From an uncultured Chloroflexia bacterium (GTDB lineage: Bacteria > Chloroflexota > Anaerolineae > CG2-30-64-16), in assembly GCA_963774265.1 (NCBI GenBank), contig CAVZDU010000001.1, positions 1,184,001 through 1,248,000 of the forward strand: 64,000 bases of DNA, written 5' to 3'. Shown here one piece after another: positions 3,797-58,809 of this stretch. The notes beneath the pieces are model-generated. The model was given only the letters and a program-made list of their open reading frames with translations, was not told the origin of the DNA and searched no databases. Position 1 is the first letter of the stretch. Each line of letters opens with the position of its first letter. The translations under genes and the position numbers were made by a program.

Positions 3797-3917
3797 GCTC
3801 TGCTCCTCTCGTGTACGCGCACCCGAAGCGCGGCGGCGTGGCACAGTTATGAAATGCCCGCTGGGATGATGGTCCGCAGCGGGCAGTGTATCACAAGACG
3901 GCGGGGCGGCCGCGGAC

Positions 3918-5098: not shown

Positions 5099-5160
5099 GG
5101 ATCCTCGACGAGACAAAGACGTCAGGAGACGATGGTCACTGTCCATGTCCATCGTCGTAG

Positions 5161-6217: not shown

Positions 6218-6275
6218 ACGTAGAACCTCCTTATGCGATGCCGCTCAGATTAAATCGGATTAGAATCGACCACGA

Positions 6276-21616: not shown

Positions 21617-24172
21617 GTGGAGGATGTTATGCAGAAGGTATGGTTAGATCCTGACCTGCGGGGGAAGCTGGGCAAGATCGGTGGCATTGTTTTGCTCGTC
21701 GCGACCCTGGCTGGCGTGGCGGTCGCGGCCGGGAGCTGCGGCCTCTTGCCGCGGCTGGCGCCGGTGCAAGCGGGTCGCGGAACGCCTACCGCAACGGCGC
21801 CCGCCATCACCGGGTCGCCCATCGTCGAGATCGCGCCGGTGGCCGGCGGCTCAGGCACGCGCATCACTGTGACGGGCCGCAACTGGCAGCCGGGCAACAC
21901 GATCTTCGTGCGCCTGGAGGATGTCGAAACGGGGCAGATGCCGGGCGTGGACCAGGCGTCCGCGATCGTGACCGACCAGGGCGACTTCGTGATCCGCTTC
22001 ACCTATCCTTACGATCCGCGCTGGGCATTGCTGCCCCGCACGCTGGTGACGGTGATCGACCCGGCCACGGGGCAGCGCGCGAACGCGGAGTTCCGCATCC
22101 TGACCCCGGCGACGGCGACGCCCACCGCAACACCCACCGCCATCCTGACCGCCACGGCCCTTCCGACGCGCGTGCAGCCGACGGCTGTCGTGCCGACCCA
22201 GGTCGCACCGCGGCCGACGGCGACGCGGGTCAGGCCGACCGCAACGCGGGTCCCGCCCACGGCAGTTCCGCCGACCGCAACGCCGGCGCCCGTCATCACG
22301 GAGTGGCGCGGGGAGTACTGGACCAACCTCAACCTGACCGGGGCGCCGAACGTCGTGCGCAATGATCCGGCGGTCGACTTCAGTTGGGGCCTCGGGTCGC
22401 CGGCCAGCCAGGTGCCGGTCGACAGCTTCTCGGCCCGCTGGACGCGCACGCTGGACTTCGCCTCGGGGACCTACCGATTTACCCTGAACGTGGATGACGG
22501 CGCGCGGCTGTGGGTGGACGACCAGATTCTCATCGACGAGTGGCGGGACAACAGCGCACACGAGGTGCGCGTGGACTTCCCGCTGAGCCGGGGCCGGCAT
22601 CAGATCCGCGTCGAATACTACGAGCGCACAGGGTTGGCCCGGGTGGCGCTGCGCTGGGAGCGAACCGGCCAGATCAGCTACCCTGACTGGATGGGCGAGT
22701 ACTGGAGCAATACGGACCTGTCGGGCGCGCCGGTGCTTACGCGCAACGATCGCATGATCGACTTTGCCTGGTCGACGGGGTCTCCCGCGGCCGGGCTGCC
22801 CGCCAACAACTTCTCGGCCCGTTGGACCCGGCAACTGGTGTTCGCGCCCGGCGTGTACCGGTTCTTCAGCCTGGGCGACGACGGCATGCGCGCGTATGTG
22901 GATGGTCGACTGGTGCTGGACCGGTGGTTCGACCAGAGCGCGTCTGATCCGTATTCGGTCGATGTGAACCTGGGCGGCCCGGCCACCATCGTGGTGGAGT
23001 ACTACGAGCGCACAGGGGGTGCGACGGCGCGGTTCTGGTGGCAGCAGATCGTCGTGCCCCCGCCGCCGCCGACCGTGACGGCCACCCGGACGGCGACCGC
23101 GACGCGAACTGCGACGGCTACGTCGACCGCGACCGCGACGGCCACGGCGACGGCTACGCCGACGGCGACGGTGACATCGATCGTCACGTCGACGCCGACC
23201 GCGACGGCCACGGCGACGGCTACGTCGACCGCGACATCGATCTACACGTCGACGCCAACCGCGACGGCGACGGCGACGGCTACGCCGACGGCGACATCGA
23301 TCTACACGTCGACGCCAACTGCGACATCGACCGCGACGGCTACGCCGACGGCGACATCGATCTTTACGTCGACGCCGACTGCGACTGCGACTGCGACCGC
23401 TACCGCAACGTCGACGCCGACCGCGACCGCCACGGCGACGCCGACTGAGACTCCGACTGAGACGCCGACTGCGACAGCGACTGCTACCGAGACGCCGGAG
23501 CCAACCGCAACGCCTACTCAGACGGCTACCGCGACAGCGACCGCTACGGAAACGCCGACTGAGACGCCGACCGCGACCGCGACTGCGACCGCTACCGAGA
23601 CGCCGACTGAGACCGGCGAAACGACGCCCATCACCCAGACACCTACGGCGACCCCGAGCGCGACGGCCTCTCCGACGGCGGCCGCGCCGGCGGTGACGGC
23701 CAGGCTGAGCGAGATCCTGCCTAATCCGAAGGCCGTGAACTGGGACCGGCGCGGTAAGGCGGACGCGCAAGATGAATGGATCGAGCTCTTCAACCCGACC
23801 CGGCGGCCGGTGGACCTGGGGGGCTGGTCCGTGACGGTGCAAGCCCCGGGCAAGCGATTGGTCCAGACGTATCGTTTCGCCAGGCGAACGACGATCCCGG
23901 CGGGCGGGCACCTGGTGCTCTACCAGCGGGATACACGGCTCGTGCTGGATGACCTGACCGCGACGGTGCGGCTGCTCGACGCGGATGGCGAGGTGGTTGA
24001 CTCGGTGACTTACGAGAAGCTGGGACCGGATGAGAGCATCAGCCGGGACGCGGCCGGCGAGTGGCACGCGGGCTGGGCCCCGACGCCGGGCGAGGAGAAT
24101 GTCGCTCCGCTGCCGGCATTGAAGCGGGGGATCAGGATCACGCCTACGCCGCGGACCGGGACGCGACCGTAG
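21617..24172 (+). CDS. Membrane-anchored surface protein: Ig-like domain, two PA14 domains, Thr/Ala/Pro-rich linker, lamin-tail domain
   Basis: N-terminal TM; two WxGEYW.N..L.G.P...R.D..DF.W...FSARWTR...DDG.R..VD..EYYE units; EILPNP..DEWIELFN..VDLGGW (LTD). Confidence 0.85.
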   Translation: MEDVMQKVWLDPDLRGKLGKIGGIVLLVATLAGVAVAAGSCGLLPRLAPVQAGRGTPTATAPAITGSPIVEIAPVAGGSGTRITVTGRNWQPGNTIFVRLEDVETGQMPGVDQASAIVTDQGDFVIRFTYPYDPRWALLPRTLVTVIDPATGQRANAEFRILTPATATPTATPTAILTATALPTRVQPTAVVPTQVAPRPTATRVRPTATRVPPTAVPPTATPAPVITEWRGEYWTNLNLTGAPNVVRNDPAVDFSWGLGSPASQVPVDSFSARWTRTLDFASGTYRFTLNVDDGARLWVDDQILIDEWRDNSAHEVRVDFPLSRGRHQIRVEYYERTGLARVALRWERTGQISYPDWMGEYWSNTDLSGAPVLTRNDRMIDFAWSTGSPAAGLPANNFSARWTRQLVFAPGVYRFFSLGDDGMRAYVDGRLVLDRWFDQSASDPYSVDVNLGGPATIVVEYYERTGGATARFWWQQIVVPPPPPTVTATRTATATRTATATSTATATATATATPTATVTSIVTSTPTATATATATSTATSIYTSTPTATATATATPTATSIYTSTPTATSTATATPTATSIFTSTPTATATATATATSTPTATATATPTETPTETPTATATATETPEPTATPTQTATATATATETPTETPTATATATATETPTETGETTPITQTPTATPSATASPTAAAPAVTARLSEILPNPKAVNWDRRGKADAQDEWIELFNPTRRPVDLGGWSVTVQAPGKRLVQTYRFARRTTIPAGGHLVLYQRDTRLVLDDLTATVRLLDADGEVVDSVTYEKLGPDESISRDAAGEWHAGWAPTPGEENVAPLPALKRGIRITPTPRTGTRP
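23170..23415 (+). repeat. Four 60-bp coding tandem repeats (TSI[VYF]TSTPTATATATATPTA)
   Basis: ACATCGATC..CACGTCGACGCC recurs with a 60-bp period inside the linker. Confidence 0.85.
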
Positions 24173-27838: not shown

Positions 27839-29616
27839 TGTAGTGGGCAGAGAGGTTCGTCCGCTATGTAGGGTAGAGAGGTTCGACCGGGGGTGGTACT
27901 TCTTTCCACGGGCAGGTTCTGATCCAGGCGGCCTCGGTGGTGTAGATCGCCAGGCCTTCAGGAGTGGCGGCCACGCCGACGATTTGTCCTTTGTGGGCTC
28001 GCCCGACATAGTAGAAGCGTTTGTGAAAGGCAACCTGGCCCAGTTGCGTCACGCGGCGGGTCTGAAAGGGTGTGAAGGGGCGTGGCTGCGGCGGTGGGAG
28101 CTTGGCGGGTTGGGCGGTGGGCTGCGCTTGTGGGAAGAGGTGCTTGCAGGGCAGCGATTTGGTTGAGCCGTCGGGCAAAGTGACCTGCCAGCAATCGCCG
28201 ACACGCTCAAGGCACAGCTGTTGACCGATCCAGGCGATCCCGACGTAGTAGAGATAGCTGTTGAGGGCGATGTTGCCGCGTCGATTGACGATCCGTGTCA
28301 GCGATCGCGGGGACAGGGCGGGGAGAGGCAAGGCCGGGGATTGCTCGGCGGCCGGCTCCAGGTCGTAAGTGCGTTGCCAGCCGTCGCTCGCTTGGGCCAC
28401 CGCTGACCAGCCGCTCACGGTGACGGCGATGGTTTGCCGCGCATAACGCCGCTGGAAGGGGAACGTGCGCCCACACAGGCTGATCCGGCCATCGGCTTGG
28501 ACCTGGCGCGTCACCACGGTTGGCTCGAGCGTGATAGGCACCTGTGCGGGGTCGAAATCATCGGGCAAGCGCCGGGAACTCGGCTGATAGACGGTGACCG
28601 GCGGCTGATCCTGACACCGGCTATGACACCGTTCGTGGTTATAGAAGCCGCGGCTGGCCTCCATGGCCTGGGGCAAGTCAGCGCCGACCTCCGGCAAGGC
28701 GCCTTCTTCACGGCAGGTGCGGACGTAACGCTCGACCACGCCGTTCCACCAAGGCTGCTTGGGTCCCACCAGCAGATGATGGATGCCTAACGCGCTCAGC
28801 ACGCGGGTCAACAGGCTCGGCAGACCGCTGATGGCATCGAACCAGAGCTTGTCATGATCGGTCTTGACGATGGCCGGCAAGCCGTATTGGCGGGCGACCG
28901 CGAGAAAGCTCTCCACCACCAGCGCTTCGGTCAGTGTCGGCGCCGTGAGTTGCCCTAACGCGTAGCGGCTGTGCAAGTCGATCCAGTGCAACGTGTACCA
29001 GCGGGAACCGTCAGCAGGTTGACTGACCTGAATATCAGCCGCCCAGATCAAGTTGCAGCTCAGATAATCGATCTGCCGCGCCGCGGCCTTGGCCAGGGCA
29101 GCGAGCGCTGGCGCTTGCAGTTCCGGGTGGCGTGCCAGGACACACCGCACGCGGCCCTCACTGACCGAGGCGCGCCGCTGCACAGCATCGCGCATGCGCC
29201 AGCGGAGTTGTTTGGCGATCTGCCGTCGGCCCCACGCCGGATGTGCTTGCTTGAGGGTACAGATGGCCCGCTCGAGGTCCGCTGGCGTGCGTTGCGGGCT
29301 ACACTCAGGCCGTGAGGACGCATCCTGCAGGCTGCTAAGACCCTTTGCCTTATCATAACGTGCAAATGTCCGCCGCACCCACCGTGCCGGCCGCTGCAAC
29401 GTCTGCGCAATTTCCCGGCGATTGAGACCCTTCTGCTCAAGGTCAACGGCGGCGCATCGATCAGCATAATCGCGAGCTGGACAACGCGGCATGGCAGCAC
29501 CCCCTTTCCGCGTTGGGAGGTGCTGTACAGTCTAATCAGATTGTGACACCTTCAGCCATCCTGCGGTCGAACCTCTCTGCCCGGTACATAGCGGACGAAC
29601 CTCTCTGCCCACTACA
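27839..29616 (-). mobile_element. Complete IS481-like insertion sequence (1778 bp) with a 9-bp target duplication
   Basis: TGT...ACA ends; TIR TGTAGTGGGCAGAGAGGTTCGTCCGCTATGTA identical at both ends; GATTTGCAC repeated at 27830-27838 and 29617-29625. Confidence 0.9.
27864..29492 (-). CDS. IS481-like DDE transposase (HTH, rve core, three Mu-C-terminal-like repeats)
   Basis: LQDASSRP..SP, HPAWGRRQI, WAAD, KTDHD, NGVVERY, YNHER.HS. Confidence 0.88.
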   Translation of the reverse strand: MPRCPARDYADRCAAVDLEQKGLNRREIAQTLQRPARWVRRTFARYDKAKGLSSLQDASSRPECSPQRTPADLERAICTLKQAHPAWGRRQIAKQLRWRMRDAVQRRASVSEGRVRCVLARHPELQAPALAALAKAAARQIDYLSCNLIWAADIQVSQPADGSRWYTLHWIDLHSRYALGQLTAPTLTEALVVESFLAVARQYGLPAIVKTDHDKLWFDAISGLPSLLTRVLSALGIHHLLVGPKQPWWNGVVERYVRTCREEGALPEVGADLPQAMEASRGFYNHERCHSRCQDQPPVTVYQPSSRRLPDDFDPAQVPITLEPTVVTRQVQADGRISLCGRTFPFQRRYARQTIAVTVSGWSAVAQASDGWQRTYDLEPAAEQSPALPLPALSPRSLTRIVNRRGNIALNSYLYYVGIAWIGQQLCLERVGDCWQVTLPDGSTKSLPCKHLFPQAQPTAQPAKLPPPQPRPFTPFQTRRVTQLGQVAFHKRFYYVGRAHKGQIVGVAATPEGLAIYTTEAAWIRTCPWKEVPPPVEPLYPT

Positions 29617-29753: not shown

Positions 29754-30873
29754 AGTAGGTAACAGAAAATTCGGGGCACTTCTTCGTTGCCTGATATACT
29801 GGGGTTACGGAGGGTGCCATGATCTATGTACGAACACCAACGGATGCTGAACTGCAAGAGCTCAAGCGAATGACCCGCCATGAGATCGGGCGGGTTAGCC
29901 AACGAGCGCAGATGGTTCTGCTCTCAGCGCAGCAGCGCACGGTGCCTGAGATCGCCGTCATCTTTGGCGTCAAGTACAAGACCGTGCGCAAATGGCTCCG
30001 CCGCTTCAATGCGGCCGGGCCGGCCGGACTGTATGATGAGCCGCGCAGTGGGCGGCCGCGGACGCTGACCGACCGTGTCCGTGACACTTTGGTCGACATG
30101 AGCGAGCAGGATCCCGAGCAGTCGGACTATCCCGCGACCTTGTGGACGGTTGCGATGCTGGCCTTAGCCTTGGCCGAGAAGATCGGCGTGTATCTGAGCC
30201 ATAGCACCCTGCGTCAGACGCTGCATGCGGCCGGCCTGGCCTGGAGCCGCCCACGACTCGCCATGCCCCGCAAGACTGATCCGCAGAAGGCGGCCAAGCA
30301 GTGGGCAATAGTGCAGGCCGTGATTGGGGCTGGCCCAGCTGCAGTCGTGCTGTACGCCGACGAATCGCGCATCCAGATGCTACCGTTGATTCGAGCAATG
30401 TGGCATCGGCTGGGCCAGCAGATCCGTGTCCCGACGCCCGGCAGCAATCAGACGCGCAGCCTATTTGGAGCGCTCAACATTCGCACGGGCCAGTGGACGT
30501 GGTTGATCCGCGAGCATATGCACAAAGAAGACTTCATCACTTTCCTGGAACACCTGTTGACGGTGTATGCCAGCGGTCCGATCATTCTGATCGTCGATAA
30601 CTACTCCAGCCATACGGCTAAGGCCATCGATGCCTGGCTGACTGAGCACCCGCGACTCCAGTTGCACTACCTGCCGAAGTACTGCTCGCATCTGAATCCG
30701 GTTGAGAACATCTGGCTGCGTCTCAAAGGCCAGACCGCCGCTGACCGCTTGTACGGTTCGCTGCATGGTCTGCTGGACGCCGTCACACGCTTCTTCGACC
30801 ATATGACGCCAGCGATGGCGTTGACCTGGGCCAGTCTCGACTGAAAAGTGACCCGTACTTTTTGTGACATACT
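29754..30873 (+). mobile_element. Complete IS630-family element (1120 bp) with TA duplication inside a CTAG target
   Basis: Imperfect TIRs AGTAGGTAACAGAAAATTCGGGGCACTT versus AGTATGTCACAAAAAGTACGGGTCACTT; flanks cTA|...|TAg. Confidence 0.9.
29819..30844 (+). CDS. IS630-family transposase
   Basis: D.PRSGRPR, YADES, IVDNYSSH, LPKYCSHLNPVENIW (DDE). Confidence 0.95.
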   Translation: MIYVRTPTDAELQELKRMTRHEIGRVSQRAQMVLLSAQQRTVPEIAVIFGVKYKTVRKWLRRFNAAGPAGLYDEPRSGRPRTLTDRVRDTLVDMSEQDPEQSDYPATLWTVAMLALALAEKIGVYLSHSTLRQTLHAAGLAWSRPRLAMPRKTDPQKAAKQWAIVQAVIGAGPAAVVLYADESRIQMLPLIRAMWHRLGQQIRVPTPGSNQTRSLFGALNIRTGQWTWLIREHMHKEDFITFLEHLLTVYASGPIILIVDNYSSHTAKAIDAWLTEHPRLQLHYLPKYCSHLNPVENIWLRLKGQTAADRLYGSLHGLLDAVTRFFDHMTPAMALTWASLD

Positions 30874-31073
30874 TAGTAAGACGATTGTGGCTCAGTTGTC
30901 TGCCCCAGGTCAAACCGAGGGCGGCCTTTGCATCTCTTGCAGATTGGCATCTTTCTGTTAGTCAAGAAGGCCGACACGTTGCTGCCTGATCGGCTTCATA
31001 TCTGAGTCCTGCTGGTCCGAGGAGCTGGGCGTTGCGGTCCTCAATGCATCACGTTTGTTCGGGACGTCAAGTG

Positions 31074-31111
31074 AGGCCGCAGCCTCTTTCTCTCTGGGGC
31101 CGCGGCCTTTT
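31074..31111 (+). terminator. Intrinsic terminator upstream of the hsdM/pglX remnant
   Basis: AGGCCGC...GCGGCCT stem followed by TTT. Confidence 0.6.
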
Positions 31112-31152
31112 GTCTTCTCCTGAAATATGTACAGGCGAGGAGAGCCACCCTA

Positions 31153-31524
31153 ATGCCACGTACCCGCAAGACCACGCCGACCTACTCCGCGACATCAGTG
31201 GGCGCATCTCTCCCGGCCCTGACAAAGGAACTCTGGCAGGCGGCGGTCAACTTGCGCGGCTCCATCGAACCGGCCGATTACAAACGCTACGTCCTGCCGC
31301 TGATCTTCCTGCGCTTCCTCTCGTTACGCTACGAGCGTCGGCGGGGCGAGTTCGAGAAGCGTCTGCTGAGCGTGATCCAGGCGGAGGTGAAGTGCGAGAT
31401 CCCCGACTGGGCCGAGGGGCCGTTCCGGAACGGCGCCTACGATCCGGTGCTGGACGACGGGGTGAAGGTGAACATCACGCTGCTGCAAGAGGCGGGGGTG
31501 CTGAGGTATGGGAAGGTGGTGTGA
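31153..31524 (+). pseudogene. Chimeric remnant: type I RM HsdM N-terminus fused to a BREX PglX-like C-terminus
   Basis: LWQAAVNLRGSIEPADYKRYVLPLIFLRFLS (HsdM_N) joined to ...YDPVLDDGVKVNITLLQEAGVL (PglX-type terminal motif); no methyltransferase core. Confidence 0.75.
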
Positions 31525-31526
31525 GG

Positions 31527-32582
31527 ATGTTCGAACCAAACTTTCAGCGCACTGACTTGCTCATCGATATGATCGCCCGGATCGAGGTGGCCCGGGACCG
31601 TATTCTGCGCGCGCCTGTTGTGCCCCGATGGGAGGCCGAGCTGCGCAGCGATGCCGTTGCTCGCAGCGCCCATCACTCGACCAGCATCGAAGGCAATCCC
31701 CTGTCGCTGCAGGAAGTTACCGACCTGTTGGCGGGTCGCGACATCCTGGCCCATCCGCGCGATCGCCAGGAAGTGCTCAATTATGCTGCGGTGTTGCGAT
31801 ACATCGATCGGAATTTCCTGGGCCAGGGTCGAGAGATTACCGAGGAGACAATCCGTCGCCTGCACGCACTCGTCGTCAAGGATGTCCTGCCGCCTCCAGA
31901 AGTTGGCCATTACCGCGGTGTGCCGGTGGTCGTAGGCGTGCCGGCAACGGGCGAAGTCGTCTTCCGGCCTCCCGGCTGGGAAGACGTTCCCGACCTGGTG
32001 GCCGACCTCGTCCTTTGGCTCAACGGCCCTGAATCAGCCGGGCTGATGCCGGTGTTGGAAGCAGGGATCGCCCACTACGAGCTGGTTCGCATTCATCCCT
32101 TTGTGGATGGCAATGGTCGCACGGCCCGGGCGTTGGCAACCCTGGTTCTGTGCCAGAGAGGTTTTGACACCAAGCGATACTTTGCCCTGGACGAGTATTA
32201 CAACCAGGATCGCGCCGGCTACTATGAAGCCCTGCGGTCCGTTGATCCAGGAACTCGGGATCTCACGGAGTGGCTGGAGTACTTCGTGCAAGGGATTGCA
32301 GTCGAGATCACGCGAGTCGAGCGCCGCGTGCAGGAAATGGCCACCCTATGGGATCTTGAGGCCCAAGCCCAACAGATATCGCTCAACGTGCGCCAGATCA
32401 AGCTGCTCGAGTTTCTGCGTCAAAGCAAGGGCGGTATCGGCAATCATGAATATCAGGGCCTGTTTCACGTCTCAAAGAGAACAGCCAGCAACGATCTGGC
32501 CGAATTGGTCAGCCACGGTCTTCTGACGGTTGAAGGCGCCGGGCCTGCGACGCGCTATCGGCTGAGCCCTGCCAGTGGCTGA
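31527..32582 (+). CDS. Fic-domain protein with C-terminal winged HTH
   Basis: STSIEGN autoinhibitory motif, HPFVDGNGRTAR catalytic motif, SKRTASNDLAELV..G HTH. Confidence 0.95.
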   Translation: MFEPNFQRTDLLIDMIARIEVARDRILRAPVVPRWEAELRSDAVARSAHHSTSIEGNPLSLQEVTDLLAGRDILAHPRDRQEVLNYAAVLRYIDRNFLGQGREITEETIRRLHALVVKDVLPPPEVGHYRGVPVVVGVPATGEVVFRPPGWEDVPDLVADLVLWLNGPESAGLMPVLEAGIAHYELVRIHPFVDGNGRTARALATLVLCQRGFDTKRYFALDEYYNQDRAGYYEALRSVDPGTRDLTEWLEYFVQGIAVEITRVERRVQEMATLWDLEAQAQQISLNVRQIKLLEFLRQSKGGIGNHEYQGLFHVSKRTASNDLAELVSHGLLTVEGAGPATRYRLSPASG

Positions 32583-32748: not shown

Positions 32749-35700
32749 TTATTTGCGCTTGCGCCGGCGGGCGAGCGCTGCGGTGACGGCGAGGAAGGCC
32801 GCGGCCAGGGCGGGCAGGGCCACCGGGGGGGCGGACGAGCCGGCGATGGCGGTCAGGTGGGCCGCGTTTGGCTCGGCGGCGACAAACGCGATGGGCGCGT
32901 GGCGCGTCCTGGCGCCGTCCAGCGCGAGGTCTTCGAGCTGATAGTAGTGGGTCGAGACGGGATCGGCGGAGGGATCGAGCCACCGGTAGGCGTGGCCCTC
33001 GCTCGAGCCGGGCGCGACCGCGGGGATCAGCGCCTGGTTGAGCTTCGTCCAGGAGCCCTGAGGCGATGACGCGCGGTAGAGGTTGAAGCCGGCGTTGTTA
33101 AACTCGGAGACGGTTTCCCAGGTGATGAGGATGCCGGCCGGCGTGAGGGCCGCATCGATGGCCGCGAGGCGCACGGCCAACGGGCCGGGTGCGAACGTGT
33201 AGTCCTCGGCTTCGCCGCCATCCGCACGGCCGATCGGCTCCAGCGACGCATCGGCTGCCTGGAGTGTCGACGGGGATGTGCAGGCGGACACCGAGGGATC
33301 GGGCGCGGGCACAAGCCGGAAGCGCATATTGTACACCGCGGTGGAGCTGATCGCGCCGATGGGGATCGCGAAGGTGACAGGTTGATCCACGCCGGGCAGC
33401 AGGGGCACGCCATCGATCACTTTCTCGGCCGCGCTCCAACGCCCATCAGGGGTGTGGGCCGAGCCTTCCCCCGGGTCAGCGCCCGTGTAGTCGAGCCAGG
33501 CGTGGAGACACGCGTATTCGCCCGGGGCGCCGGTGACCGTGACGGCAACCTCGCCCTGGCCGTCGTTCCAACTGCTTTCTCCGCGCAGCACGCCGTCGTC
33601 GGGATCGCCCCCTGATTGGTCCCCCCAGAGCGTTCCCAGGCGCAGGGCGCCCTGCCCCGTATGCCAGGCCAGTCCGTAGTCACCGCCCAGGTCGCTCCGG
33701 TCGGGGAGCAGGGCGAGTCCGATGAGGATGGGGTCATGGCTCGCCGCGCGGTAGGGATCGGCGTTGTAGAGGCCAGCCTGTTGCGCGGCGGACTTGTTTT
33801 CCACGTTGTAGTCCAGCGCGCCCGGCTCGTCGGCATTGATGTGCCACGGCTCGGCGCCGATCACCTGGGGCAGCAGCGCGGCGCTGGCCAGGCCGCGGTC
33901 GCCCGCGCCGGACAGCCCATCCCAAACGACCGTGTAAGCCGTGCTGCCGGCACCCAGGGAGAGCAGGTCCGTGTAGCCGCCCGCGACGAGCGTCCTGATG
34001 GGGGCTTCGCGGGCGAACGCGTTGGCGTCGCCGACCCACAGGAAGTCAGGATCGCCGGCCCCGGTGGGGTCGGCGGCCAGCCAGGCCAGGAGCGCCTCCG
34101 CGGCTTGCGTGCGCAGGGCGTTCCAGCAGCCCTGCCCGTCGCCCTGATCGGCATCGTCGCCACTGGCCGGACAGCCATCCCGTTGGGGGAGATCGTTCAC
34201 GACGACCGTGAGCCGCTCGCCCCACTCGCCCTCCTCGAAGGTTTGCGCCATCGGAACGTGGTCAGCCAGCGGGAGTTGCGTGAACGCGCCTGTCTCCGGC
34301 TTTGCGGGAGAACCGACCGGCGTCACCCGCGCGGGCTGATAGACGATCGCAACGGTTGCGGCGCCGCTGCCCCAGGGGACGCCCGCACCGGGAACGACGT
34401 AGGCATAGGCGCCGGGCGCCGAGGCGTTCAACCCGTCAACCAGATCGTCCAGCGCGCCGGCATCGCCGTAGCCGTCGTTTTCGATGCCCGTCACGCCCAG
34501 AATGTCCGTATCCAGGGCCAGCAACGCGGAGATCAGCTTGGCGCGCTGCCGCATGAACTCCCCGGCGCTGCCGGCGCCCAGGGAGCCGGTGAAGTCGCCG
34601 CTCCCGTCCCCGTTGAAGTAGTGACCGAGGTTCACCCCTGCCACGCGCACGTTCGCGCCGGTCAGCGCGGGGACCGAAGGACGCCCATTGGCCGGCGTGA
34701 AGGACACCGTGCCGACGGGTTGGACCCGATAGCCTCCCACCCCCTGATCGACCACGCCGGCCAGGCCTGTGGGGAGGGTGTCGCCCACACGTAGCGTGTG
34801 GCCTGCCGACAGGCCGGGATCGGGATGCACGATGGGGTCGGGGTGTTCGATGAGCACACCATCATCGAGCGTGATGCTGCGCAGGGCGATTCCCTCCTGA
34901 AACGCGGCAAAGCCAGCGACAGCGGGATCGTTCAGCTCCGTGTAGTGCCAGGGCCGATCCCCCTCCATAAGCCGGACCTGGCCGAGCGAGGCGAGCTCAT
35001 CGGTCCCGGTCACGGTGAGCAGGGAAGGGATCGTGACCAGCATGCCCTCGTAGTGCTCCCAAAGGTCTGCGGCCGACGCGGGCAGCGCGACGGCGGCCGG
35101 GGAGGGGAGGCCGGCTGAACCACAGGCGGCGAGCGATGTGATATTCGCCAGCGTTGTCAGCCCGTCAACCTCGGCCACGACGCCCGTGACGCGCACGCGG
35201 TCACCCGCCCCGACGTCCAGGGTCGACGCTGGCCCTTCGGCCACGAAGAGCGCCTCGGAGGTCAGCGGGTCAGCATCGGCGTCGGCGGCTTCCTCCTGAA
35301 CAAAGAAACCGGACAGCTTAGCAGCCCCCTGGAAGTCGCCCACGACGACGCCCTCGATGGTGCGGGTCGATCCGGCCAATGGGCTGGCGGCTGACGCGGC
35401 CTGGACCTCGTGGATGTGATCGGCGGGGTCCCCGCAGGCGTCAGGCGTGGGACCGGGGCAAGTGTGCGCCGGGGAGGCGCTGTTGCGGGGAGCAGGGGGT
35501 AGGATCTCGAAGTCGGCGGCGTTGTCGTCCGTGTCTGTGCAACCGCCGTCCCTGCGTACGGCGGCTGTGGTCGTGCTCGTGGGGGGTGTTGGCCCGGAGC
35601 CCTCCCAGTGGTTGGCGGCGCCATACCCGACATAATCGATGATATCCGGATCGCCTGCAATTTCGATGCGGTACGTGTTCGTAACCAGTGCAACTCTCCC

Positions 35701-36102
35701 ACTTAAGGGCTTCGACGTCATTCCCGCAAACTGTGCGTCGGCAGTGGGGAGAGGCAGACCTGCAGTGCCGCATTCGCCAGCTATCAGCGCGTACTGATAG
35801 GCCCCGATGCTCGCTGCCAGGGGCTTATGGACGGTGAACGTCAGCGAACCGGTACCGGTGGCTAACGCAGTCTGTAAGGACCATCCCACCAGGGACACCG
35901 GCGAGTCGCCGGCATTGAAGAGCTCGACGAAGGTGCAACTGTATGTTGAATCGAGCTTTGCCCCGCCCAGATACACCTGGCTGATACGTACATTGGGCGA
36001 GATCACTTCGGGAGCGGATGCGCCTGCGGGCGTGAAGGCGGAGAAGAGGACGAAAAGGACGACGGCGAATCGGACACGCGACGAGACGGCAGTGGGTGGC
36101 AT
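32749..36102 (-). CDS. ExeM/NucH-like extracellular nuclease homologue (LTD, OB-fold, EEP, GEVED-like, C-terminal anchor)
   Basis: Signal peptide; ISQVY..FVELFN (LTD); IEGVVVGDFQ..GFFVQE; EHYEGMLV; WHINADEP..LDYN; GEAEDY; C-terminal TM plus RRRKRK. Confidence 0.88.
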   Translation of the reverse strand: MPPTAVSSRVRFAVVLFVLFSAFTPAGASAPEVISPNVRISQVYLGGAKLDSTYSCTFVELFNAGDSPVSLVGWSLQTALATGTGSLTFTVHKPLAASIGAYQYALIAGECGTAGLPLPTADAQFAGMTSKPLSGRVALVTNTYRIEIAGDPDIIDYVGYGAANHWEGSGPTPPTSTTTAAVRRDGGCTDTDDNAADFEILPPAPRNSASPAHTCPGPTPDACGDPADHIHEVQAASAASPLAGSTRTIEGVVVGDFQGAAKLSGFFVQEEAADADADPLTSEALFVAEGPASTLDVGAGDRVRVTGVVAEVDGLTTLANITSLAACGSAGLPSPAAVALPASAADLWEHYEGMLVTIPSLLTVTGTDELASLGQVRLMEGDRPWHYTELNDPAVAGFAAFQEGIALRSITLDDGVLIEHPDPIVHPDPGLSAGHTLRVGDTLPTGLAGVVDQGVGGYRVQPVGTVSFTPANGRPSVPALTGANVRVAGVNLGHYFNGDGSGDFTGSLGAGSAGEFMRQRAKLISALLALDTDILGVTGIENDGYGDAGALDDLVDGLNASAPGAYAYVVPGAGVPWGSGAATVAIVYQPARVTPVGSPAKPETGAFTQLPLADHVPMAQTFEEGEWGERLTVVVNDLPQRDGCPASGDDADQGDGQGCWNALRTQAAEALLAWLAADPTGAGDPDFLWVGDANAFAREAPIRTLVAGGYTDLLSLGAGSTAYTVVWDGLSGAGDRGLASAALLPQVIGAEPWHINADEPGALDYNVENKSAAQQAGLYNADPYRAASHDPILIGLALLPDRSDLGGDYGLAWHTGQGALRLGTLWGDQSGGDPDDGVLRGESSWNDGQGEVAVTVTGAPGEYACLHAWLDYTGADPGEGSAHTPDGRWSAAEKVIDGVPLLPGVDQPVTFAIPIGAISSTAVYNMRFRLVPAPDPSVSACTSPSTLQAADASLEPIGRADGGEAEDYTFAPGPLAVRLAAIDAALTPAGILITWETVSEFNNAGFNLYRASSPQGSWTKLNQALIPAVAPGSSEGHAYRWLDPSADPVSTHYYQLEDLALDGARTRHAPIAFVAAEPNAAHLTAIAGSSAPPVALPALAAAFLAVTAALARRRKRK

Positions 36103-45887: not shown

Positions 45888-46628
<741 letters not shown>

Positions 46629-46641
46629 TTGGGACCGCCTC

Positions 46642-47481
46642 CTACCGTTTCTCGACCGACAGACGGCGCTCCATGGCCGTGCTGACGCGGGTGAAGAATA
46701 CGGTCAGGATCAGATAGATGAGTGCTACAACCAGGTACGTGTCGAAGCTAGCAAAGGTGCGTCCCACCCACTCACGGCCTCGCCGCGTGATATCTTCAAG
46801 GCCCAGGACGGAAACCAGGGAGCTATCCTTCAACAGCGTCACAAACTCGTTGCTGACGGGCGGCAGAATGACGCGCACCGCTTGCGGGAGGATGATATAG
46901 CGCGTCGCCTGGAGATAGTTCATGCCCAAGGAGCGCGAGGCCTCCATCTGACCCTTGGCGATCGACTGGATGCCTGCGCGAAAGATCTCGGTCATGTACG
47001 CGCCGAAGGCGAAGGTGAAGGCGACGACGGCGGCCGGGAAACCAGCAATGCGCGCATCCTTCATGCCTAACCCTTCGCGAAATAACACGGGCAGACCGAA
47101 GTAGATCCAGAGGATCCAGACGAGCACGGGCACCCCGCGTACGATCTCTACATACAGTGAGGCAATGCCTTTGAGAATTCCGACGTTGGAGACGCGGATC
47201 ACGCCCATCACCATGCCGACCACCAGGATGCAAGCAAACGAGACGGCAGTCAGCTTCAGCGTCATGAAGACGCCGTCACCATCCGCAGGCGAACCGAACA
47301 CGTAGCGGAAGATGGGTTGGTACTTTTCGGGGAAGGCGAAGAATAAGAACGCGGCAATGATGAGGGCGCCGATCAGCAATAGCCAATAGCGATCGACGTG
47401 GGCCCACCGGCCATGCTCAGACGGCCGGGATGGCACCGGCGCGGAGCCGGTGACGATGACGGGCTTCGTGGAGTCAGCCAC
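46642..47481 (-). CDS. Polar amino-acid ABC transporter permease
   Basis: [41 protein letters not shown]. Confidence 0.95.
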
Positions 47482-47572
47482 CTGTACTATCGCTCCTTCT
47501 GCGGCCTGTCAGGCCGCGTTCGACCATTTCGGATTTGAGTTCACGTTGCTGACGTCGTTGTCGCGTGATCAG

Positions 47573-48529
47573 TTATTTTCTCAAGCGCGGATCGAGCGCG
47601 TCCCGAAGACCGTCGCCCAGCAGATTGAAGCCCAGCACGGTCAGCATTATGGCGAAGCCTGGGAAAAAGACCAGGTGCGGCGAGGTGAAAACCTGGTTGC
47701 GCTCAGAGCCCAGCATGGAGCCCCACTCCGCGAGCGGCGGTTGCGCACCGAGTCCAAGGAAGGAGAGTGCAGCGGCATCCAGGATCGCGGTTGCGATGCC
47801 CAGTGTCCCCTGGACGATCAATGGCGTAAGGGTGTGTGGGAGGATGCTGCGCGTGAGGATGCGACTCCCGGGCACCCCGGTGGCTCGATCCGCCATGACG
47901 AAGTCCCACTCTTTGACGGTCAGGACACTTGCGCGCGCGACGCGCGCGTAGGCAGGGATGGAGACGATGCCGATGGCGAGCAGCGCATTAACCAAGCCCT
48001 CACCCAGCACTGTAACGATCGCAATGGCCAGCAAGAGGCTGGGGAATGCGAGCAAGACGTCCATGAACCGCATGATTATGTTGTCAGTCCATCCGCCCAG
48101 GAAACCAGCCAGCGCGCCCAAGCTGGCGCCGATCAGGATCGCAAAGCCTACCGTGGTGAAACCCACCATCAGCGATATGCGCGAGCCAAATACTACGCGG
48201 CTGAAGAAGTCGCGCACATTGCCGTCGGTGCCGAGGATGTGCTGCGGCTGGTCTGCCGGGCAGCCCAGGATATGAACGCACGGCGCCTGGCGTTTCTTCA
48301 CCGCCTCTTTGCCGATGAGCACTTGAGTGGGATCATAAGGCGCGATGGCGGGCGCGAAAATGGCGACCAGGACCAGGATCAGCAAGATCACCATGCCGGC
48401 GATGGCCGACTTTGTTCGGAAGAGCGCGCGCATGGCGTCCTGGGACGGGCTGCGCGGTGGACGGGTGATGATGACATCGGACTCGGCGCTCGCCGTGGGT
48501 TCAATAGCTGTCATCTTCGGCTTTCTCAT
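47573..48529 (-). CDS. dppC: Peptide ABC transporter permease (DppC/OppC-type)
   Basis: HILGTD..RD.FSR..FGSRISL, MRFMDVLLAFP, LSFLGLG..PP..EWG. Confidence 0.92.
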   Translation of the reverse strand: MRKPKMTAIEPTASAESDVIITRPPRSPSQDAMRALFRTKSAIAGMVILLILVLVAIFAPAIAPYDPTQVLIGKEAVKKRQAPCVHILGCPADQPQHILGTDGNVRDFFSRVVFGSRISLMVGFTTVGFAILIGASLGALAGFLGGWTDNIIMRFMDVLLAFPSLLLAIAIVTVLGEGLVNALLAIGIVSIPAYARVARASVLTVKEWDFVMADRATGVPGSRILTRSILPHTLTPLIVQGTLGIATAILDAAALSFLGLGAQPPLAEWGSMLGSERNQVFTSPHLVFFPGFAIMLTVLGFNLLGDGLRDALDPRLRK

Positions 48530-49602
48530 CCCAACCGCACACGAGGATCGAGGAATGCGTAGAGCAGATCAACGAATAGATTGATAATGACATAAGCGGC
48601 GGCGATGATGAGGGTAAACCCCTGCACGATGGAATAGTCGCGCGCCTGGATGGCATCAAACAGGATGCGGCCGACGCCGGAAAGGTTGAAAATCGTCTCT
48701 GTCAGCACCGCGCCGCCGAGCAAGCTGCCTAGGGACAGGCCAATGATCGTGACCACCGGGATGAGTGCGTTGCTCATACCGTGGCGCATCACGACGCCGC
48801 GTTCCCGCAAGCCCTTGGCGCGGGCCGTCCGTACATAATCCAGGCCCAGGACGTCCAGCAGGCTGGAGCGCGTCATGCGCGCAATAATGGCGAGCGGGAT
48901 GGTGCCCAGCGCAGCCGCGGGCAGGATCATGTGCTTGGCGGTGTCCCAGAATACCGTCCAGTTCAACGTGACCAGGCCGTTGAATAAGTGCATGTTGGAC
49001 AAGAAGTTCAGTAGCGAGTCGAGAAAACCGGGTTGCAGGCTTAAGTTCCAGGTCTCTTGCAGGGATGGCACGATCAGGCCGGGTGAGTTGCGGCCTGACG
49101 GAGGCAACTGCAAGGGTGTGTCCTTGAGCGCAAGTCCGAAAAGGTAGGCCAGCATCAAGCCCAGCCAGAAGACCGGCATCGAGACGCCGATGTTGGCGAC
49201 GACCATGGTCGCCACGTCGACGAGTGAGTTGCGTCTGTAGGCGGACCACATGCCGGCGAAAATGCCGACGATCGTGGCAAAAAGGAGCGCGCACAAGGTT
49301 AACTCGATCGTAACGGGCAGACGCTCCGCCATTATTTGTGTCACGGACCGGCCATAACGGAATGACATGCCGAGGTCGCCCTGAAAGACATCGGCGATGT
49401 AGATGGCGAACTGGGTGGGGATGGGCTCGTTGAGACCGTACCGTTCGTTGAATGCGTCGCAAACCTGGTCGGTGGCCTTTTCGCCCAACATCGCCCGGCA
49501 GGGATCACCCGGCAGCAGGCGCGCCAGTGCGAACGTGACGAACAGAATGCCGAGCAGGACGGGGATGGCAGCCAGCACGCGTTGGCTGATGAAGCGGAAC
49601 AT
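48526..49602 (-). CDS. dppB: Peptide ABC transporter permease (DppB/OppB-type)
   Basis: LPGDP, GDLGMS, SMPVFWLG, ARMTRSS, DYVRTARAKGL, GAVLTETIF. Confidence 0.92.
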   Translation of the reverse strand: MFRFISQRVLAAIPVLLGILFVTFALARLLPGDPCRAMLGEKATDQVCDAFNERYGLNEPIPTQFAIYIADVFQGDLGMSFRYGRSVTQIMAERLPVTIELTLCALLFATIVGIFAGMWSAYRRNSLVDVATMVVANIGVSMPVFWLGLMLAYLFGLALKDTPLQLPPSGRNSPGLIVPSLQETWNLSLQPGFLDSLLNFLSNMHLFNGLVTLNWTVFWDTAKHMILPAAALGTIPLAIIARMTRSSLLDVLGLDYVRTARAKGLRERGVVMRHGMSNALIPVVTIIGLSLGSLLGGAVLTETIFNLSGVGRILFDAIQARDYSIVQGFTLIIAAAYVIINLFVDLLYAFLDPRVRLG

Positions 49603-49617
49603 TGACGCTCCCGAATG

Positions 49618-49677
49618 GTAGGGGCAGGTGCAAGACCTGCCCCTACGACGCTGGGCAGGTGCAAGACCTGCCCCTAC
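49618..49677. repeat. Two tandem GTAG-type REP-like palindromes between the SBP gene and dppB
   Basis: GTAGGGGCAGGT-GCAAG-ACCTGCCCCTAC, then GGGCAGGTGCAAGACCTGCCCCTAC. Confidence 0.8.
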
Positions 49678-49686
49678 GACAACAGG

Positions 49687-52157
49687 TTATTCGGCCGGCG
49701 GTGCGTTCAGGAATTGCCCGAACAGGCCGGGGAAGTAGGTGAAGGAGCCGTCGCGGCCCACGTGCAGCGGATGCGCGGCATCCCATTGCACCGCGTAGGA
49801 CAGGATTACGTCCTTGGCATCCAGGTCACTGCCGTCATGGAACTTCACACCCTTGCGGAGCTTGAGGGTCCATTCGGTCAGGCCGGCGTTGGCTTCGTAG
49901 CTCTCGGCCAATCCGGGCTGAACCGCCGTGCCGCCGACTTCGTAGGACAACAGCGCCTCGTTGATCTGCTCGCACACGCGCAGCGACTCGCCGTCGGTCT
50001 CGTCGGCACAGTAGAGGCCAATCGGCTCAGCGTTCTGCATCCAGACGAACGTGTCCCGACCGCCCGCATCCATGACCGCGAAGCTCTCGTTGCCCAAGGG
50101 GCTGGCGTGCGCGCCGGTCACGTCGGCCTTGAAGACCGTCGCAGAACCGCCGTGCGCCACCGGCACCATCGGCACATACTTCTTGATGAGGTTATTGGCC
50201 TCGGCGTAGAGCTTGTTGCGCTCGGCCGGGTCAGACAAGGAGGCGGCTTTTTTCAAAACCGCGTGCAGGTCATCGAAGCCTTTGCCGAACGCGGGCGAGG
50301 CGCCGTCGCCGAAGTGGTAATCGAGGAAGTTGGTCTGGTCCGGGTAGTCCGCGCCCCAGCCCAAGAGATACATGCTCAACTGGCCTTGATCTGCCGCGTC
50401 CAGGAACGCGCCGGATTCCATGACCACGATGTTGACAGTGATGCCCAGCTCCTTGAGCTGTGCCTGGATGTCCTGCGCCACCAGGCCCGGCTCGGGCAGG
50501 TAACCGCGGACAACATCGCGGTAGGAGAGATCAATTGTGAAGCCCTTCTCGAAGCCGGCCTCTTTCAGCAACGCCTTGGCTGCTTCCAGATCGTAATCAT
50601 ACCACTTATCACCGTCACAACCGCCAGGAATGGCGCATGGGGTGAAGTGAGATGCGACCACAGAGCCTTCCGGATAGAAGTTGTCCACGATGCGGGCGCG
50701 ATCGAGACCGATGGCCAGCGCCTGGCGCACCTTGTCATTGTCGAGCGGGGGCTTGTCGCGGTTCATGCCCAGGTAGAAGATGTTCAACGCCTCCCGGGGG
50801 TACAGCTTCAGGTTCTTGTCAGCCGCGATCGTGGCAAAGTCATCCGGCGTGGGGTTGTCAATGCCATCCACCGTGCCGGCCTGCAACTCAAGCAGGCGGG
50901 CCGCGCCCTCCTTCTGCCAGCGGAACACCAGGGTCTTGGCCTTGGCCGGCTCACCCCAGTAGTCCTCATTGCGGGTCATAATGACGCTGTCGCCCTTTTG
51001 CCACTTCTCCAGCTTGTAGGGGCCGGTGCCGACAGGGTTGCTCGATCAGGGCGTCGCCACCACCGCCGGTGCTTTCCAGGTATTCAGAAGGATGAATCTG
51101 GAACGCAGAGAAGGCGACCTTCGAGGGGAAGGCCACATCAGAACTGCACAGCGTGAACTTGACGGTCAAGTCGTCGACTGCTTCGATCGACTTGATCTCG
51201 CCGCCGTAGTCGCAGTTGACCGCAGCGTAGCTGGTGTCGGTGACGACTGCCTGGTTTCCACCCTCCGCGGGCGCCTCAGCGGCGGCCGCACCGGGCTTCT
51301 TGCCTAACCACTTTTCGTAGATCGTGTCATATTCGCCACTGGCCTTCAGGTTTGCGAGGCCGGCGTTGAACAGCGGCAGCACGCCCTTCGGGTCGCCCTT
51401 CTGGACCGTGAGCCCGAAGGTCTCGTTGGTCGGGAGCTCCCGATGTGATCTTCAGCTTGCCCTTGAACTGCTCGGCCTGAAGCGCGTAGTTGGCCGCGAC
51501 AGGATAGTCCACAACAACCGCATCGAGGTTCCCATTGACGAGATCCTGGAGCGCAAGATCGGGTGAATCGTACTGCTTCGGGTCGACGCCGAGATCCCGA
51601 ACGGCAAACGTACCGGTGGTTTCGATCTGGGTGCCAACGCGCTTGCCGGCTAACGAGGCGCCACCGGTGATGTCGGCGTTGTCGGCCACCACCACGATGG
51701 CCTGGTTGGAGTTGAAGTAGGGATCGGAGAAGTCGTAGAGCTTCTGGCGATCTTCGCGGATGGTGACGGATGAGATGATCGCGTCATACTGGCCCGCTTC
51801 CAGGCCCGCGAAGATGCCGTCCCATGCGACGTTCTGGAACTCAATTTCGAACTTCTGGTCCGTTGCGATGGCCTTGATGAGGTCGATGTCGAAGCCGGTG
51901 AGTTCCTTGGCTTGATCGACGAACTCCATGGGCGCGAATTCCGCATTCGTGGCGACGCTGAACTTCTTCGCCGCTGCTGCAGGAACTGCAGTCGGTTTAG
52001 GGGCCTCCGTGGCCTTCGGGGCCTCGGTGGCCGCGGCAGGCTGAGCGGGGGCGGCTGTGGGCTGGGCGGCAGGGGTGGCGGGCGTGCCACACGCGGCCAA
52101 CATGCCCAGCAGCATCACCGCGACGGTCAGCAGGCTGATGAACTTAAGGTACTTCAT
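49687..52157 (-). CDS. Fused substrate-binding lipoprotein: family 3 (polar amino acid) plus circularly permuted family 5 (peptide) domain; frameshifts near 51440 and 51030
   Basis: Lipobox LAAC; FAPMEF..GFDIDL..WDGIFAGL..DFSDPY; SGEYDTIYEKW runs in frame into IEAVDDLTVKFTL; PGLAESYE..LRKGVKFHDG lies at the C-terminus. Confidence 0.85.
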
Positions 52158-53375: not shown

Positions 53376-54087
<712 letters not shown>

Positions 54088-57641: not shown

Positions 57642-58809
57642 TTACGGGTTCACGACGGAATTGAACTTAATGCCCTCAGCGGTCACGGCCAGGATGGTGG
57701 CCGACTTCACCGGGTTGTGCTGCGCGTCGTAGGTGACCTTGCCGGAGACGCCGTTCGAACTTGATCTTTGGCCATGGCATCCTTCACCTTGGCGGCATCG
57801 TCCGCGCCGGCTTCTTTGATGCCTTGCAGCAGGATGTTGGTGGCGTCGTAGGCCAGGGCGGCCAACGCATCCGGAACCGCGCCCTTGCCAGAGCTGTCCT
57901 TGTACTTGGCGCTGAAATTCTTCAGGAAAGCCACAGCTTCGGGAGCCGTGGAGTCCTTCGGCGAGTAGTGGTTGGTGAAGTACCCGCCGGCCGCGGCCTT
58001 CAGGTCCAGGTCCGACGAGTCCCAGCCATCGCCGCCGACGAACGGGGCGGTGATGCCCTTCTCCTTGGCCTGCTTGGTCACCAGGTTGACGATGTTGTAG
58101 TAGTCGGGCAGGTAGACCACGTCAGGCTTGGCGTCGGCGACCTTCGCCAGGATGGCGGAGAAATCGGTGTCCTTGGCGGTGTAGCTTTCCTTGCCCACGA
58201 TCGTGCCGCCGCCCGCGGTGAAGGCCTTCTCGAAGAATTCGGCCAGGCCCTTGACGTAGTCGTTCGCCTGGTCGAGCATGATGAACGCGGTCTTGGCCTT
58301 CAGGTTCACCAGGGCGAAGTTGGCGCCCACCGTGCCCTGGAACGGGTCGATGAAGCAGGCGCGGAAGATGAAGTCCTTGGTCTTGCCGTCCTTGGTCAAC
58401 CGTCACGTCCGGGTTGGTCGAGGTGGGGCTGATCTGGATGCACCCCCTTGGCGTTTGCGATCTCGGAGATGGGGATGGAGGCCTTGGAGCAGACTTCGCC
58501 GATGATGTAGTGGACCTTGTCCTGGTCGATGACCTTGTTGGCGGCGTTGACCGCCGGGTCAGGGGTGCATTGGCTGTCTTCGACGATGGGCACGATCTTC
58601 TTGCCCAACACACCGCCCTTTGCGTTCCATTCGTCGATGGCCAGCAGTGCGCCATCGCGGGTCATGACGCCGAAGGTCGGCACGGGGCCCGATAGCGGGG
58701 CCAGCACGGCAACTTTGATCTCGCCGCCGGCAGTGCCTGCCGCGCCGCCACAAGACGACAAGACCATGGCCAGGATGGCCAGGACGCCTAGGATTCGAAA
58801 AGCACGCAT
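57642..58809 (-). CDS. Branched-chain amino-acid ABC substrate-binding lipoprotein (LivJ/K-type; frameshifted)
   Basis: Lipobox LSSC, APLSG, N.KGGVLGK, FRACFIDPFQG, DFSAIL, GGDGWD, GVSGKVTYD. Confidence 0.9.

Follow-up and report, generated by a model that had tools for sequence, protein, structure and literature searches.

A binding-protein gene of an uncultured Chloroflexia bacterium raises the question of whether a DppA-like substrate-binding domain exists in nature as a circular permutant. The gene lies on the minus strand, at positions 49687 to 52157 of a 64,000-nucleotide stretch of contig CAVZDU010000001.1 (assembly GCA_963774265.1, positions 1,184,001 to 1,248,000); we refer to this whole stretch as the window. 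An original prediction, made from the DNA sequence, held that the blocks of the DppA chain follow each other in swapped order within one unbroken open reading frame (ORF), and that this represents a true circular permutation. We observe a swapped order, its conservation among homologs, a DppA-like predicted fold, conserved synteny and conserved ligand residues. We consider it very probable that this DNA codes for the ligand-binding domain of an ATP-binding cassette (ABC) transporter binding protein of cluster C (family 5, DppA-like), and that its chain is circularly permuted as a conserved trait, with the fold, the ligand site and the DppBC partners retained and with dipeptide-like compounds as the probable ligands.

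For comparison with the canonical chain, DppA was divided into four blocks, N (approximately residues 1-120), M (120-200), A (200-340) and B (340-507). The 430 amino acid ORF at 49687-50979 (minus strand) matches the Pfam family SBP_bac_5 (PF00496) in two stretches, scoring 235.2 bits against a cutoff of 32.4. When this ORF was searched against PDB sequences with phmmer, its residues 4-287 aligned with residues 203-489 of HbpA from H. parasuis (3m8u; independent E-value 3.6e-46), and its residues 310-419 aligned with HbpA residues 4-120 (4.6e-10). For E. coli DppA (1dpe), residues 5-301 of the ORF aligned with 202-502, and residues 341-419 with 34-118 (9.9e-10). The alignment to DppA is thus not a single collinear one but falls into two pieces in swapped order, as had been proposed. 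The interval of DppA left between them, approximately 120-200, is filled by an upstream segment, CDYGG...GTGPY (about 51214-50980); thus all of DppA is covered once, in rotated order. A complete protein, P0001, which is 91% identical to the window protein, matches positions 148-530 of the 535-position NCBIfam DppA model with its residues 83-459.

Read in the direction of transcription, the permuted domain begins with block M (50980..51214), a new N-terminal segment CDYGG...VDDLTV...GTGPY that corresponds to approximately residues 120-200 of mature DppA and carries a Cys pair. Blocks A and B follow (50077..50979; ORF residues 1-301, equivalent to DppA 202-502) and include the ligand-anchoring Arg (in DVVRGYLP) and Asp (in GWGADYPD). 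The old C-terminus is then joined to the old N-terminus by a short junction linker, VMDAGGRD (50053..50076; ORF residues 302-309), which is kept as xMxPGGRD in the A1 consensus. Block N (49723..50052; ORF residues 310-419) represents the N-terminal ~120 residues of DppA and HbpA by phmmer, and is followed by a new C-terminal tail, FGQFLNAPPAE, and the stop codon (49687..49722). The best canonical-order relative, P0341 (41% identity), displays the motif equivalent to this tail running directly into the start of block M, so that the C-terminal and N-terminal motifs of the permuted family form one continuous motif, ...LFGGFKGDANCRIAG...LTL; the permutation cut can therefore be located precisely.

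Could the swapped order be an artefact of assembly or annotation, in which an incomplete binding-protein gene reads on into the beginning of another? The assembly of the window is rich in indels and the gene itself is frameshifted twice. The junction, however, lies in an unbroken frame; neither a stop or start codon nor a signal peptide is present there, and thousands of homologs from many independent contigs cross it collinearly. Hidden Markov models (HMMs) were built for the four blocks from the family alignment. Of 97 permuted-family proteins, 96 gave the order M-A-B-N and the remaining one had no detectable block M; of 41 canonical relatives, 39 gave the order N-M-A-B, the exceptions being one protein without block M and one, P0249, that is a tandem. 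The permuted arrangement is also found in 32 of 80 genome loci, and the AlphaFold2 model described below brings the whole domain together in one confident globule. We therefore regard the artefact as having next to no probability, and the proposal of a true circular permutation has gained from the swapped alignment, the block HMMs, the collinear homologs and the predicted structure alike. Because its block order is M-A-B-N, and not the canonical N-M-A-B of SBP_bac_5, we class the window protein as a variant of that family.

The permuted family is large. A word-indexed protein search found 6967 proteins with E <= 1e-10. For the best 120 of these, one local alignment spans at least 91% of the query (97-100% in most cases), and identities are 68-91%. 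An exhaustive search was made of 1.84 billion representatives of 50%-identity clusters, and the best 150 matches were examined. Among these 150, 114 cross the junction of old C-terminus and old N-terminus in one stretch, a count that includes the canonical tandem P0249, whose join between copy 1 and copy 2 mimics the junction; 16 are canonical and match in two stretches, and 20 are fragments that stop short of the junction. Near-full-length proteins account for 82 of the 150 and are 32-71% identical to the query; the family is therefore old and diverse. Genome loci were surveyed for the best 80 of 593 relatives. Thirty are collinear with the window protein, two more are collinear but split (L027, L032), and the canonical order is seen in 45 and also in L045; of the last two, L039 is truncated by a contig end, and L033 stands apart and is considered below. 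The 32 permuted loci belong to Chloroflexota (30 loci, from Anaerolineae, Caldilineales, Chloroflexales and Ardenticatenaceae) and Actinomycetota (2 loci, L015 and L019). NCBIfam contains no dedicated model for the permuted family, every match to its models being below cutoff.

By prediction, the permuted domain would fold like DppA. An AlphaFold2 model of P0001, computed with a 60-sequence family alignment, has a mean predicted local distance difference test score (pLDDT) of 87.2 and a predicted template modeling score (pTM) of 0.82, with low values in the signal peptide and linker only. A Foldseek search of this model against PDB gave as best matches DppA (1dpp_A), GbpA/HbpA (3m8u) and Y. 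pestis DppA, at a root mean square deviation (rmsd) of 2.1-2.5 Å over 374-385 aligned columns, approximately the length of the collinear M-A-B part; the match to 1dpp_A has an rmsd of 2.5 Å over 385 columns and a probability of 1.00. These top matches have a template modeling score of 0.69 when normalized to the target, and identities of about 31-34%. Foldseek found no PDB chain that matches the full permuted domain at low rmsd, matches of 450-487 columns being at 7-9 Å; therefore no solved structure with the M-A-B-N order was found.

The new N-terminal segment may be held in place by a disulfide bond, as the original prediction suggested for the Cys of CDYGG and that of FTLC. Both residues are present in 87 of 105 permuted proteins, both are absent from 12, and only 6 have one without the other; at the FTLC position, Cys is missing from all 41 canonical relatives. 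This co-occurrence supports the proposed pairing and suggests that a new disulfide staples the relocated segment. Two other Cys pairs show a similar distribution: TPC...GGC is complete in 50 and absent from 47 of 97 permuted proteins, with no protein having one Cys only, and YCADE...ACEQ is complete in 70, absent from 24 and half present in 2 of 96.

According to a cryo-EM study of E. coli DppABCDF (PMC12136057), R383 and D436 of DppA (R355 and D408 of the mature protein) bind the dipeptide's carboxyl and amino groups, charge reversal of these residues abolishes binding, and E41 and R42 of DppB's scoop loop contact them after docking. In the phmmer alignment, R383 and D436 align with the Arg of DVVRGYLP and the Asp of GWGADYPD in the window protein, and both residues are invariant in the 60 closest homologs (R316 and D369 of P0001). 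Directly downstream lies a gene for a DppB-like permease with E41-K42 at the scoop-loop position (48526..49602, minus strand; Pfam BPD_transp_1 and BPD_transp_1_N; NCBIfam DppB, 5.5e-86, below cutoff), followed by one for a DppC-like permease whose start overlaps the dppB stop by 4 nucleotides (47573..48529, minus strand; Pfam BPD_transp_1 and OppC_N; NCBIfam GsiD/DppC). Genes for DppB and DppC are found directly downstream in 13 of 15 related loci scanned; the exceptions are L030, where a DNA methylase gene intervenes, and L002, which has no permease gene downstream. Loci L003, L015 and L019 continue with genes for DppD and DppF. Locus L005, whose protein is 71% identical, has the same gene order as the window, including the gene for a metallo-beta-lactamase-fold protein upstream and plsY downstream. 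We infer a dipeptide specificity for the window protein from these aligned residues and would expect the permuted domain to act as an ordinary Venus-flytrap receptor that captures dipeptide-like ligands and delivers them to DppBC as usual.

Several observations weigh against this interpretation. The wider permuted family keeps the ligand Arg in only 57 of 97 proteins and the Asp in 67 of 97; specificity therefore varies, and other members probably bind other ligands. No oligo_HPY domain, the mark of DppD and DppF, was found by Pfam among the 63 ORFs of the window that were scanned, and no DppD or DppF gene was seen on the same strand in 8 unfused Chloroflexota loci scanned. The ABC ATPase gene of the window operon (45888..46628, minus strand; Pfam ABC_tran; NCBIfam GlnQ, 2.7e-99) is of the GlnQ type and lacks the oligo_HPY domain, and therefore encodes neither DppD nor DppF. 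Scores to the equivalog models of NCBIfam are low, 200-242 bits for DppA (NF043070) against a cutoff of 1005, with OppA and NikA also far below cutoff; the protein is therefore not an ortholog of any characterized binding protein. The structural comparison of the P0001 model gives the number of aligned columns, not which residues are aligned. Finally, the copy of the gene in the window is broken by two +1 frameshifts and, as assembled, would not make the protein.

The last of these points bears on the extent of the gene. Between 52157 and 49687, the minus strand contains three overlapping ORFs in three frames. The first (51327-52157, 276 amino acids) begins with a signal peptide that ends in LAAC; a linker rich in Pro, Ala and Thr and the greater part of an SBP_bac_3 domain follow. 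The second (50966-51382, 138 amino acids) completes this domain and continues with another linker and then CDYGGEIKSIEAVDDLTVKFTLC...ALIEQP; the third is the 430 amino acid ORF discussed above. An intact ortholog of 817 amino acids, P0123, was aligned to the window by tblastn, and gave three collinear high-scoring segment pairs (HSPs) that span all three frames: residues 1-234 in frame -3 (52157-51441), residues 235-383 in frame -1 (51439-50993, meaningful to approximately residue 366) and residues 367-817 in frame -2 (51042-49690, 92% identity). We conclude that a single gene of approximately 820 codons occupies the locus (49687..52157, minus strand), encoding a lipoprotein of ~820 amino acids composed of SBP_bac_3, a linker and permuted SBP_bac_5. 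The original prediction described the 430 amino acid ORF correctly, but its domain also took in the CDYGG segment, which is read in another frame beyond a +1 frameshift at ~51043. It also overlooked the N-terminal SBP_bac_3 domain and the start at 52157, the permuted domain being the C-terminal two thirds of the protein only, and it spoke of a corrected protein while locating neither frameshift.

The signal peptide (52089..52157, minus strand; translation MKYLKFISLLTVAVMLLGMLAAC) ends in a lipobox-like LAAC. The SBP_bac_3 domain, of the polar amino-acid binding type (51299..51968, minus strand; Pfam PF00497), is broken at 51440: its larger part is on the 276 amino acid ORF (1.8e-30; 105.9 bits against a cutoff of 26.4) and its C-terminal end on the 138 amino acid ORF. 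Within NCBIfam, the corresponding domain of P0123 comes closest to the Lys/Arg/Orn and GlnH families, but reaches the cutoff of neither. A low-complexity linker (51215..51298, minus strand; translation KPGAAAAEAPAEGGNQAVVTDTSYAAVN) separates the two binding domains.

The two frameshifts can be placed from the tblastn alignment. The first is one extra base inside a GGG run at 51440, since HSP 1 ends at 51441 and HSP 2 begins at 51439; the second, also one extra base, has the approximate position 51043, where the frame -1 and frame -2 HSPs overlap (51042-50993), and separates the readings ...ALI and SNPVGTGPY. Two +1 frameshifts inside ~400 bp, the one at ~51043 being outside any long homopolymer, would fit a reading in which both are biological and the gene is a real pseudogene in this organism. 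The window, however, contains core glycolytic genes in the same condition. The phosphoglycerate kinase (PGK) gene is split over 3 frames (5003-5290, 4584-5015 and 3847-4782, minus strand), which match successive parts of the PGK profile, and the glyceraldehyde-3-phosphate dehydrogenase (GAPDH) gene over 2 frames (N domain in 5342-6244, C domain in 5161-5748, minus strand). Other genes of the window are fragmentary: Pfam shows a LivJ-like binding protein split into two adjacent ORFs, and the profiles for IMP dehydrogenase (IMPDH) and FGGY kinase are matched in part only. An ORF of 87 amino acids (53376-53639) that resembles the end of a Liv-type ATPase has no Pfam match at 1e-5, and the adjoining 91 amino acid ORF matches only the first 51 positions of ABC_tran. 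This pattern fits sequencing error, and the frames of the gene are otherwise clean, without stops or decay, and 92% identical to the intact P0123. Since PGK and GAPDH are also split and an intact ortholog exists, both frameshifts are probably assembly errors; we consider a pseudogene very improbable. Regions with split or fragmentary genes are found at 3847-6244, 53376-54087 and 57707-58809 on the minus strand, and the assembly seems rich in single-base indels.

Fusion of the permuted domain to other domains is common and not peculiar to the window protein. Among longer homologs, Pfam places it C-terminally behind SBP_bac_3, ANF_receptor/Peripla_BP_6 (LivJ-like), SBP_bac_8, Bmp and OpuAC, and in P0032 it occurs together with Peripla_BP_4. 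A gene of locus L003 (3460-7293, plus strand; 1277 amino acids) encodes three fused domains, SBP_bac_8, SBP_bac_3 and the permuted one, and P0237 (1039 amino acids) is a Ser/Thr protein kinase that has the permuted domain as its extracellular part. A large N-terminal extension is present in 25 of the 82 near-full-length representatives. Protein P0352, of 3461 amino acids, contains the permuted domain in 3 matched stretches.

These architectures suggest another role, in which the permuted domain, no longer delivering substrate, would be a sensor or would keep other binding domains at the membrane as a module for docking or anchoring. Its constant C-terminal position, following binding domains from other families, would fit such a role, as would its placement outside the cell on a kinase, the frequency of the N-terminal extensions, and the many operons in which DppBC but no DppDF was seen. 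We nevertheless think this unlikely: the ligand Arg and Asp are invariant in the subgroup of the window protein, the charges of the DppB scoop loop are kept, and most members are unfused and encoded directly before dppB and dppC, with complete DppBCDF operons in L003, L015 and L019. We thus prefer an ordinary receptor that delivers to DppBC, and the permuted family does not, by itself, indicate a new transport mechanism.

The operon of the window (45888-52157, minus strand) combines parts of two different ABC importers, whose receptors are fused in one lipoprotein. Between the DppC-like and GlnQ-type genes is a gene for a GlnP/HisQ-type polar amino-acid permease (46642..47481, minus strand; NCBIfam GlnP, 5.6e-46; TIGR01726, 80.7 bits against a cutoff of 42.2). 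This permease and the GlnQ-type ATPase are of the types that match the SBP_bac_3 domain. The gap between the binding-protein gene and dppB contains two identical 25-nucleotide GC-rich hairpin units in tandem (49622..49677, minus strand; RNA fold -51.6 kcal/mol, z -3.83), which may act as an intercistronic stabilizer or attenuator. The unit was also considered as a dispersed repeat, a possibility rejected on finding only these two copies in the window. Elsewhere, in 5 of the 15 loci (L010, L011, L014, L021 and L025, at about 4230-5500, plus strand), the gene immediately upstream of the unfused permuted gene encodes a radical SAM protein.

How did the permuted order arise? Most likely, the gene was duplicated in tandem and in frame, and the outer ends were then lost. 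Permutation by duplication predicts tandem forms, and three such proteins were found that represent the expected intermediates: P0249 is a canonical tandem in which the C-terminal end of copy 1 is joined by a short linker to block N of copy 2, and P0121 and P0122 each contain two permuted domains in tandem. Canonical and permuted forms, tandems of either kind and doubly permuted forms thus coexist. We infer the tandem-duplication route from this series.

The doubly permuted form is represented by P0243, a complete lipoprotein of order B-N-M-A that has a relic linker of ~13 residues between the first-order termini. Compared with the first-order protein P0448, its halves are swapped: residues 50-330 align with P0448 residues 283-563 (85% identity), and residues 344-573 with 51-280 (72% identity). 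About 60 of the best 120 clusters listed cover 97-100% of P0243 collinearly at 69-83% identity. Its AlphaFold2 model (pLDDT 82.1, pTM 0.80) matches DppA-type structures over 368-386 columns, approximately the length of N-M-A, where Foldseek again gives columns and not the residues aligned. The order B-N-M-A occurs a second time in L033, from a metagenome-assembled genome of Bacillota, in a 535 amino acid lipoprotein (3437-5044, plus strand) cut near DppA residue 340 and followed by dppB and dppC. DppA and HbpA are bilobed proteins with an extra subdomain. We take this subdomain to be DppA residues 34-182, in which case the first cut (~120) falls inside it; the second cut (~340) presumably falls in the other lobe.

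Phylogenetic analysis was based on 83 of 149 aligned rows: 26 of the 86 main-clade permuted rows (16 chosen, 10 random), 4 of the 10 second-order rows, L033, and every one of the 11 outlying permuted and 41 canonical rows; the canonical-locus ORFs of L043, L079 and L080, each without a block, had been dropped earlier. The P0243 subfamily nests in the first-order family as sister to P0448 (IQ-TREE support 100/99), and L033 derives from canonical relatives. The first-order permutation and those of P0243 and L033 therefore support at least three permutation events, and permutation has been a repeated event in this lineage. In the free tree, the canonical P0341 clade, including the tandem P0249, falls among permuted lineages, a position that would imply either reversion or a second origin of the first permutation. 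A single clade for all permuted proteins is not rejected by the approximately unbiased test (difference in log likelihood 3.64, p 0.336), and we claim neither a single origin nor the alternatives.

The relocated N-terminus would ease tethering to the membrane and N-terminal fusion. It is possible, and we propose it only tentatively, that permutation is a recurrent and still-active mode of evolution in this lineage, selected because it moves the N-terminus to the outer subdomain, off the hinge and the face that docks on the permease; that the domain has become a universal C-terminal module, preceded by binding domains for amino acids, branched-chain compounds, sugars or nucleosides and even by a kinase; and that multi-receptor lipoproteins on one lipid anchor serve several co-encoded ABC translocators, here DppBC and GlnPQ.

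Outside the operon, the window includes transposase-like genes, one with rve_3/HTH domains (27864-29492, minus strand) and one with a DDE_3 domain (29819-30844, plus strand), which adjoin a Fic-domain gene (31032-32582). Genes for large proteins with PA14/LTD domains at 21617-24172 and 32749-36102 flank this region.

Substrate-binding proteins serve as textbook examples in the study of protein topology and evolution and as workhorses of biosensor design, for which circular permutants are made by hand. A full-text search of open-access papers and of bioRxiv found no description of a natural permuted family-5 binding protein; the same literature yielded no natural permuted binding-protein family other than the cluster-B type of TpMglB-2. 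The large permuted family in Chloroflexota is thus apparently undescribed. If our reading is true, it would be a second and much larger natural family of permuted binding proteins, in cluster C, and would bring its own putative disulfide staple and repeated re-permutation. Surviving tandems that match each step of permutation by duplication would make it an unusually complete natural series, relevant to the evolution of protein topology and to the receptors of ABC importers, and its members would offer ready-made permutation sites for the engineering of peptide sensors. Pfam and NCBIfam see two partial or sub-threshold matches in these proteins, so that thousands of Chloroflexota binding proteins and their fusions are described imprecisely.

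The closest known precedent is Tp0684 (TpMglB-2) of T. pallidum, described (PMC4990184) as a naturally circularly permuted cluster-B glucose-binding lipoprotein, labeled 'Type Ic/Cluster Bc', for which the authors suggested membrane tethering as the selective reason. The two cases are alike in being natural permutations of an ABC binding protein, in forming a family of their own and in being tethered lipoproteins. TpMglB-2, however, is a sugar-binding protein of cluster B, type I, a fourth hinge crossover is gained through its permutation, which moves the first three strands of the N-lobe to the C-terminus, and the permuted part is poorly similar to the canonical N-terminus. The present family belongs to cluster C, is larger, has been re-permuted, is often fused, and has a permuted block that is clearly homologous to its canonical counterpart (independent E-value ~1e-10). 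The matches listed for the window protein and its model (best 60 of 87 by sequence, top 50 by fold) are almost all of the peptide, nickel or opine type and include no MglB-type sugar-binding protein; we therefore regard the window protein as an analog of TpMglB-2, not a member of its family. Engineered permutants of maltose- and ribose-binding proteins, used for biosensors and in folding studies, demonstrate that new termini are compatible with the fold when the native ends are linked to each other. Those are laboratory constructs from clusters B and D, whereas the present family is natural and belongs to family 5.

Among canonical proteins, E. coli DppA (1dpp/1dpe) and HbpA/GbpA (3m8u, 3tpa) are the best matches in sequence and in fold; the ligand Arg and Asp are common to them and the window protein, and DppB/DppC-type permeases adjoin. 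The differences are that DppA and HbpA have the order N-M-A-B, while the window protein has M-A-B-N, is a lipoprotein with a long linker, is fused behind SBP_bac_3, and is encoded in an operon without DppD and DppF. For the fusion itself, the nearest parallel is GlnPQ of Lactococcus, in which two family-3 binding domains are reportedly fused to the permease. Both arrangements place several binding domains on one polypeptide that serves an ABC importer; unlike GlnPQ, the window protein joins domains of different families to each other in a free lipoprotein, with separate sets of permeases encoded in the operon.

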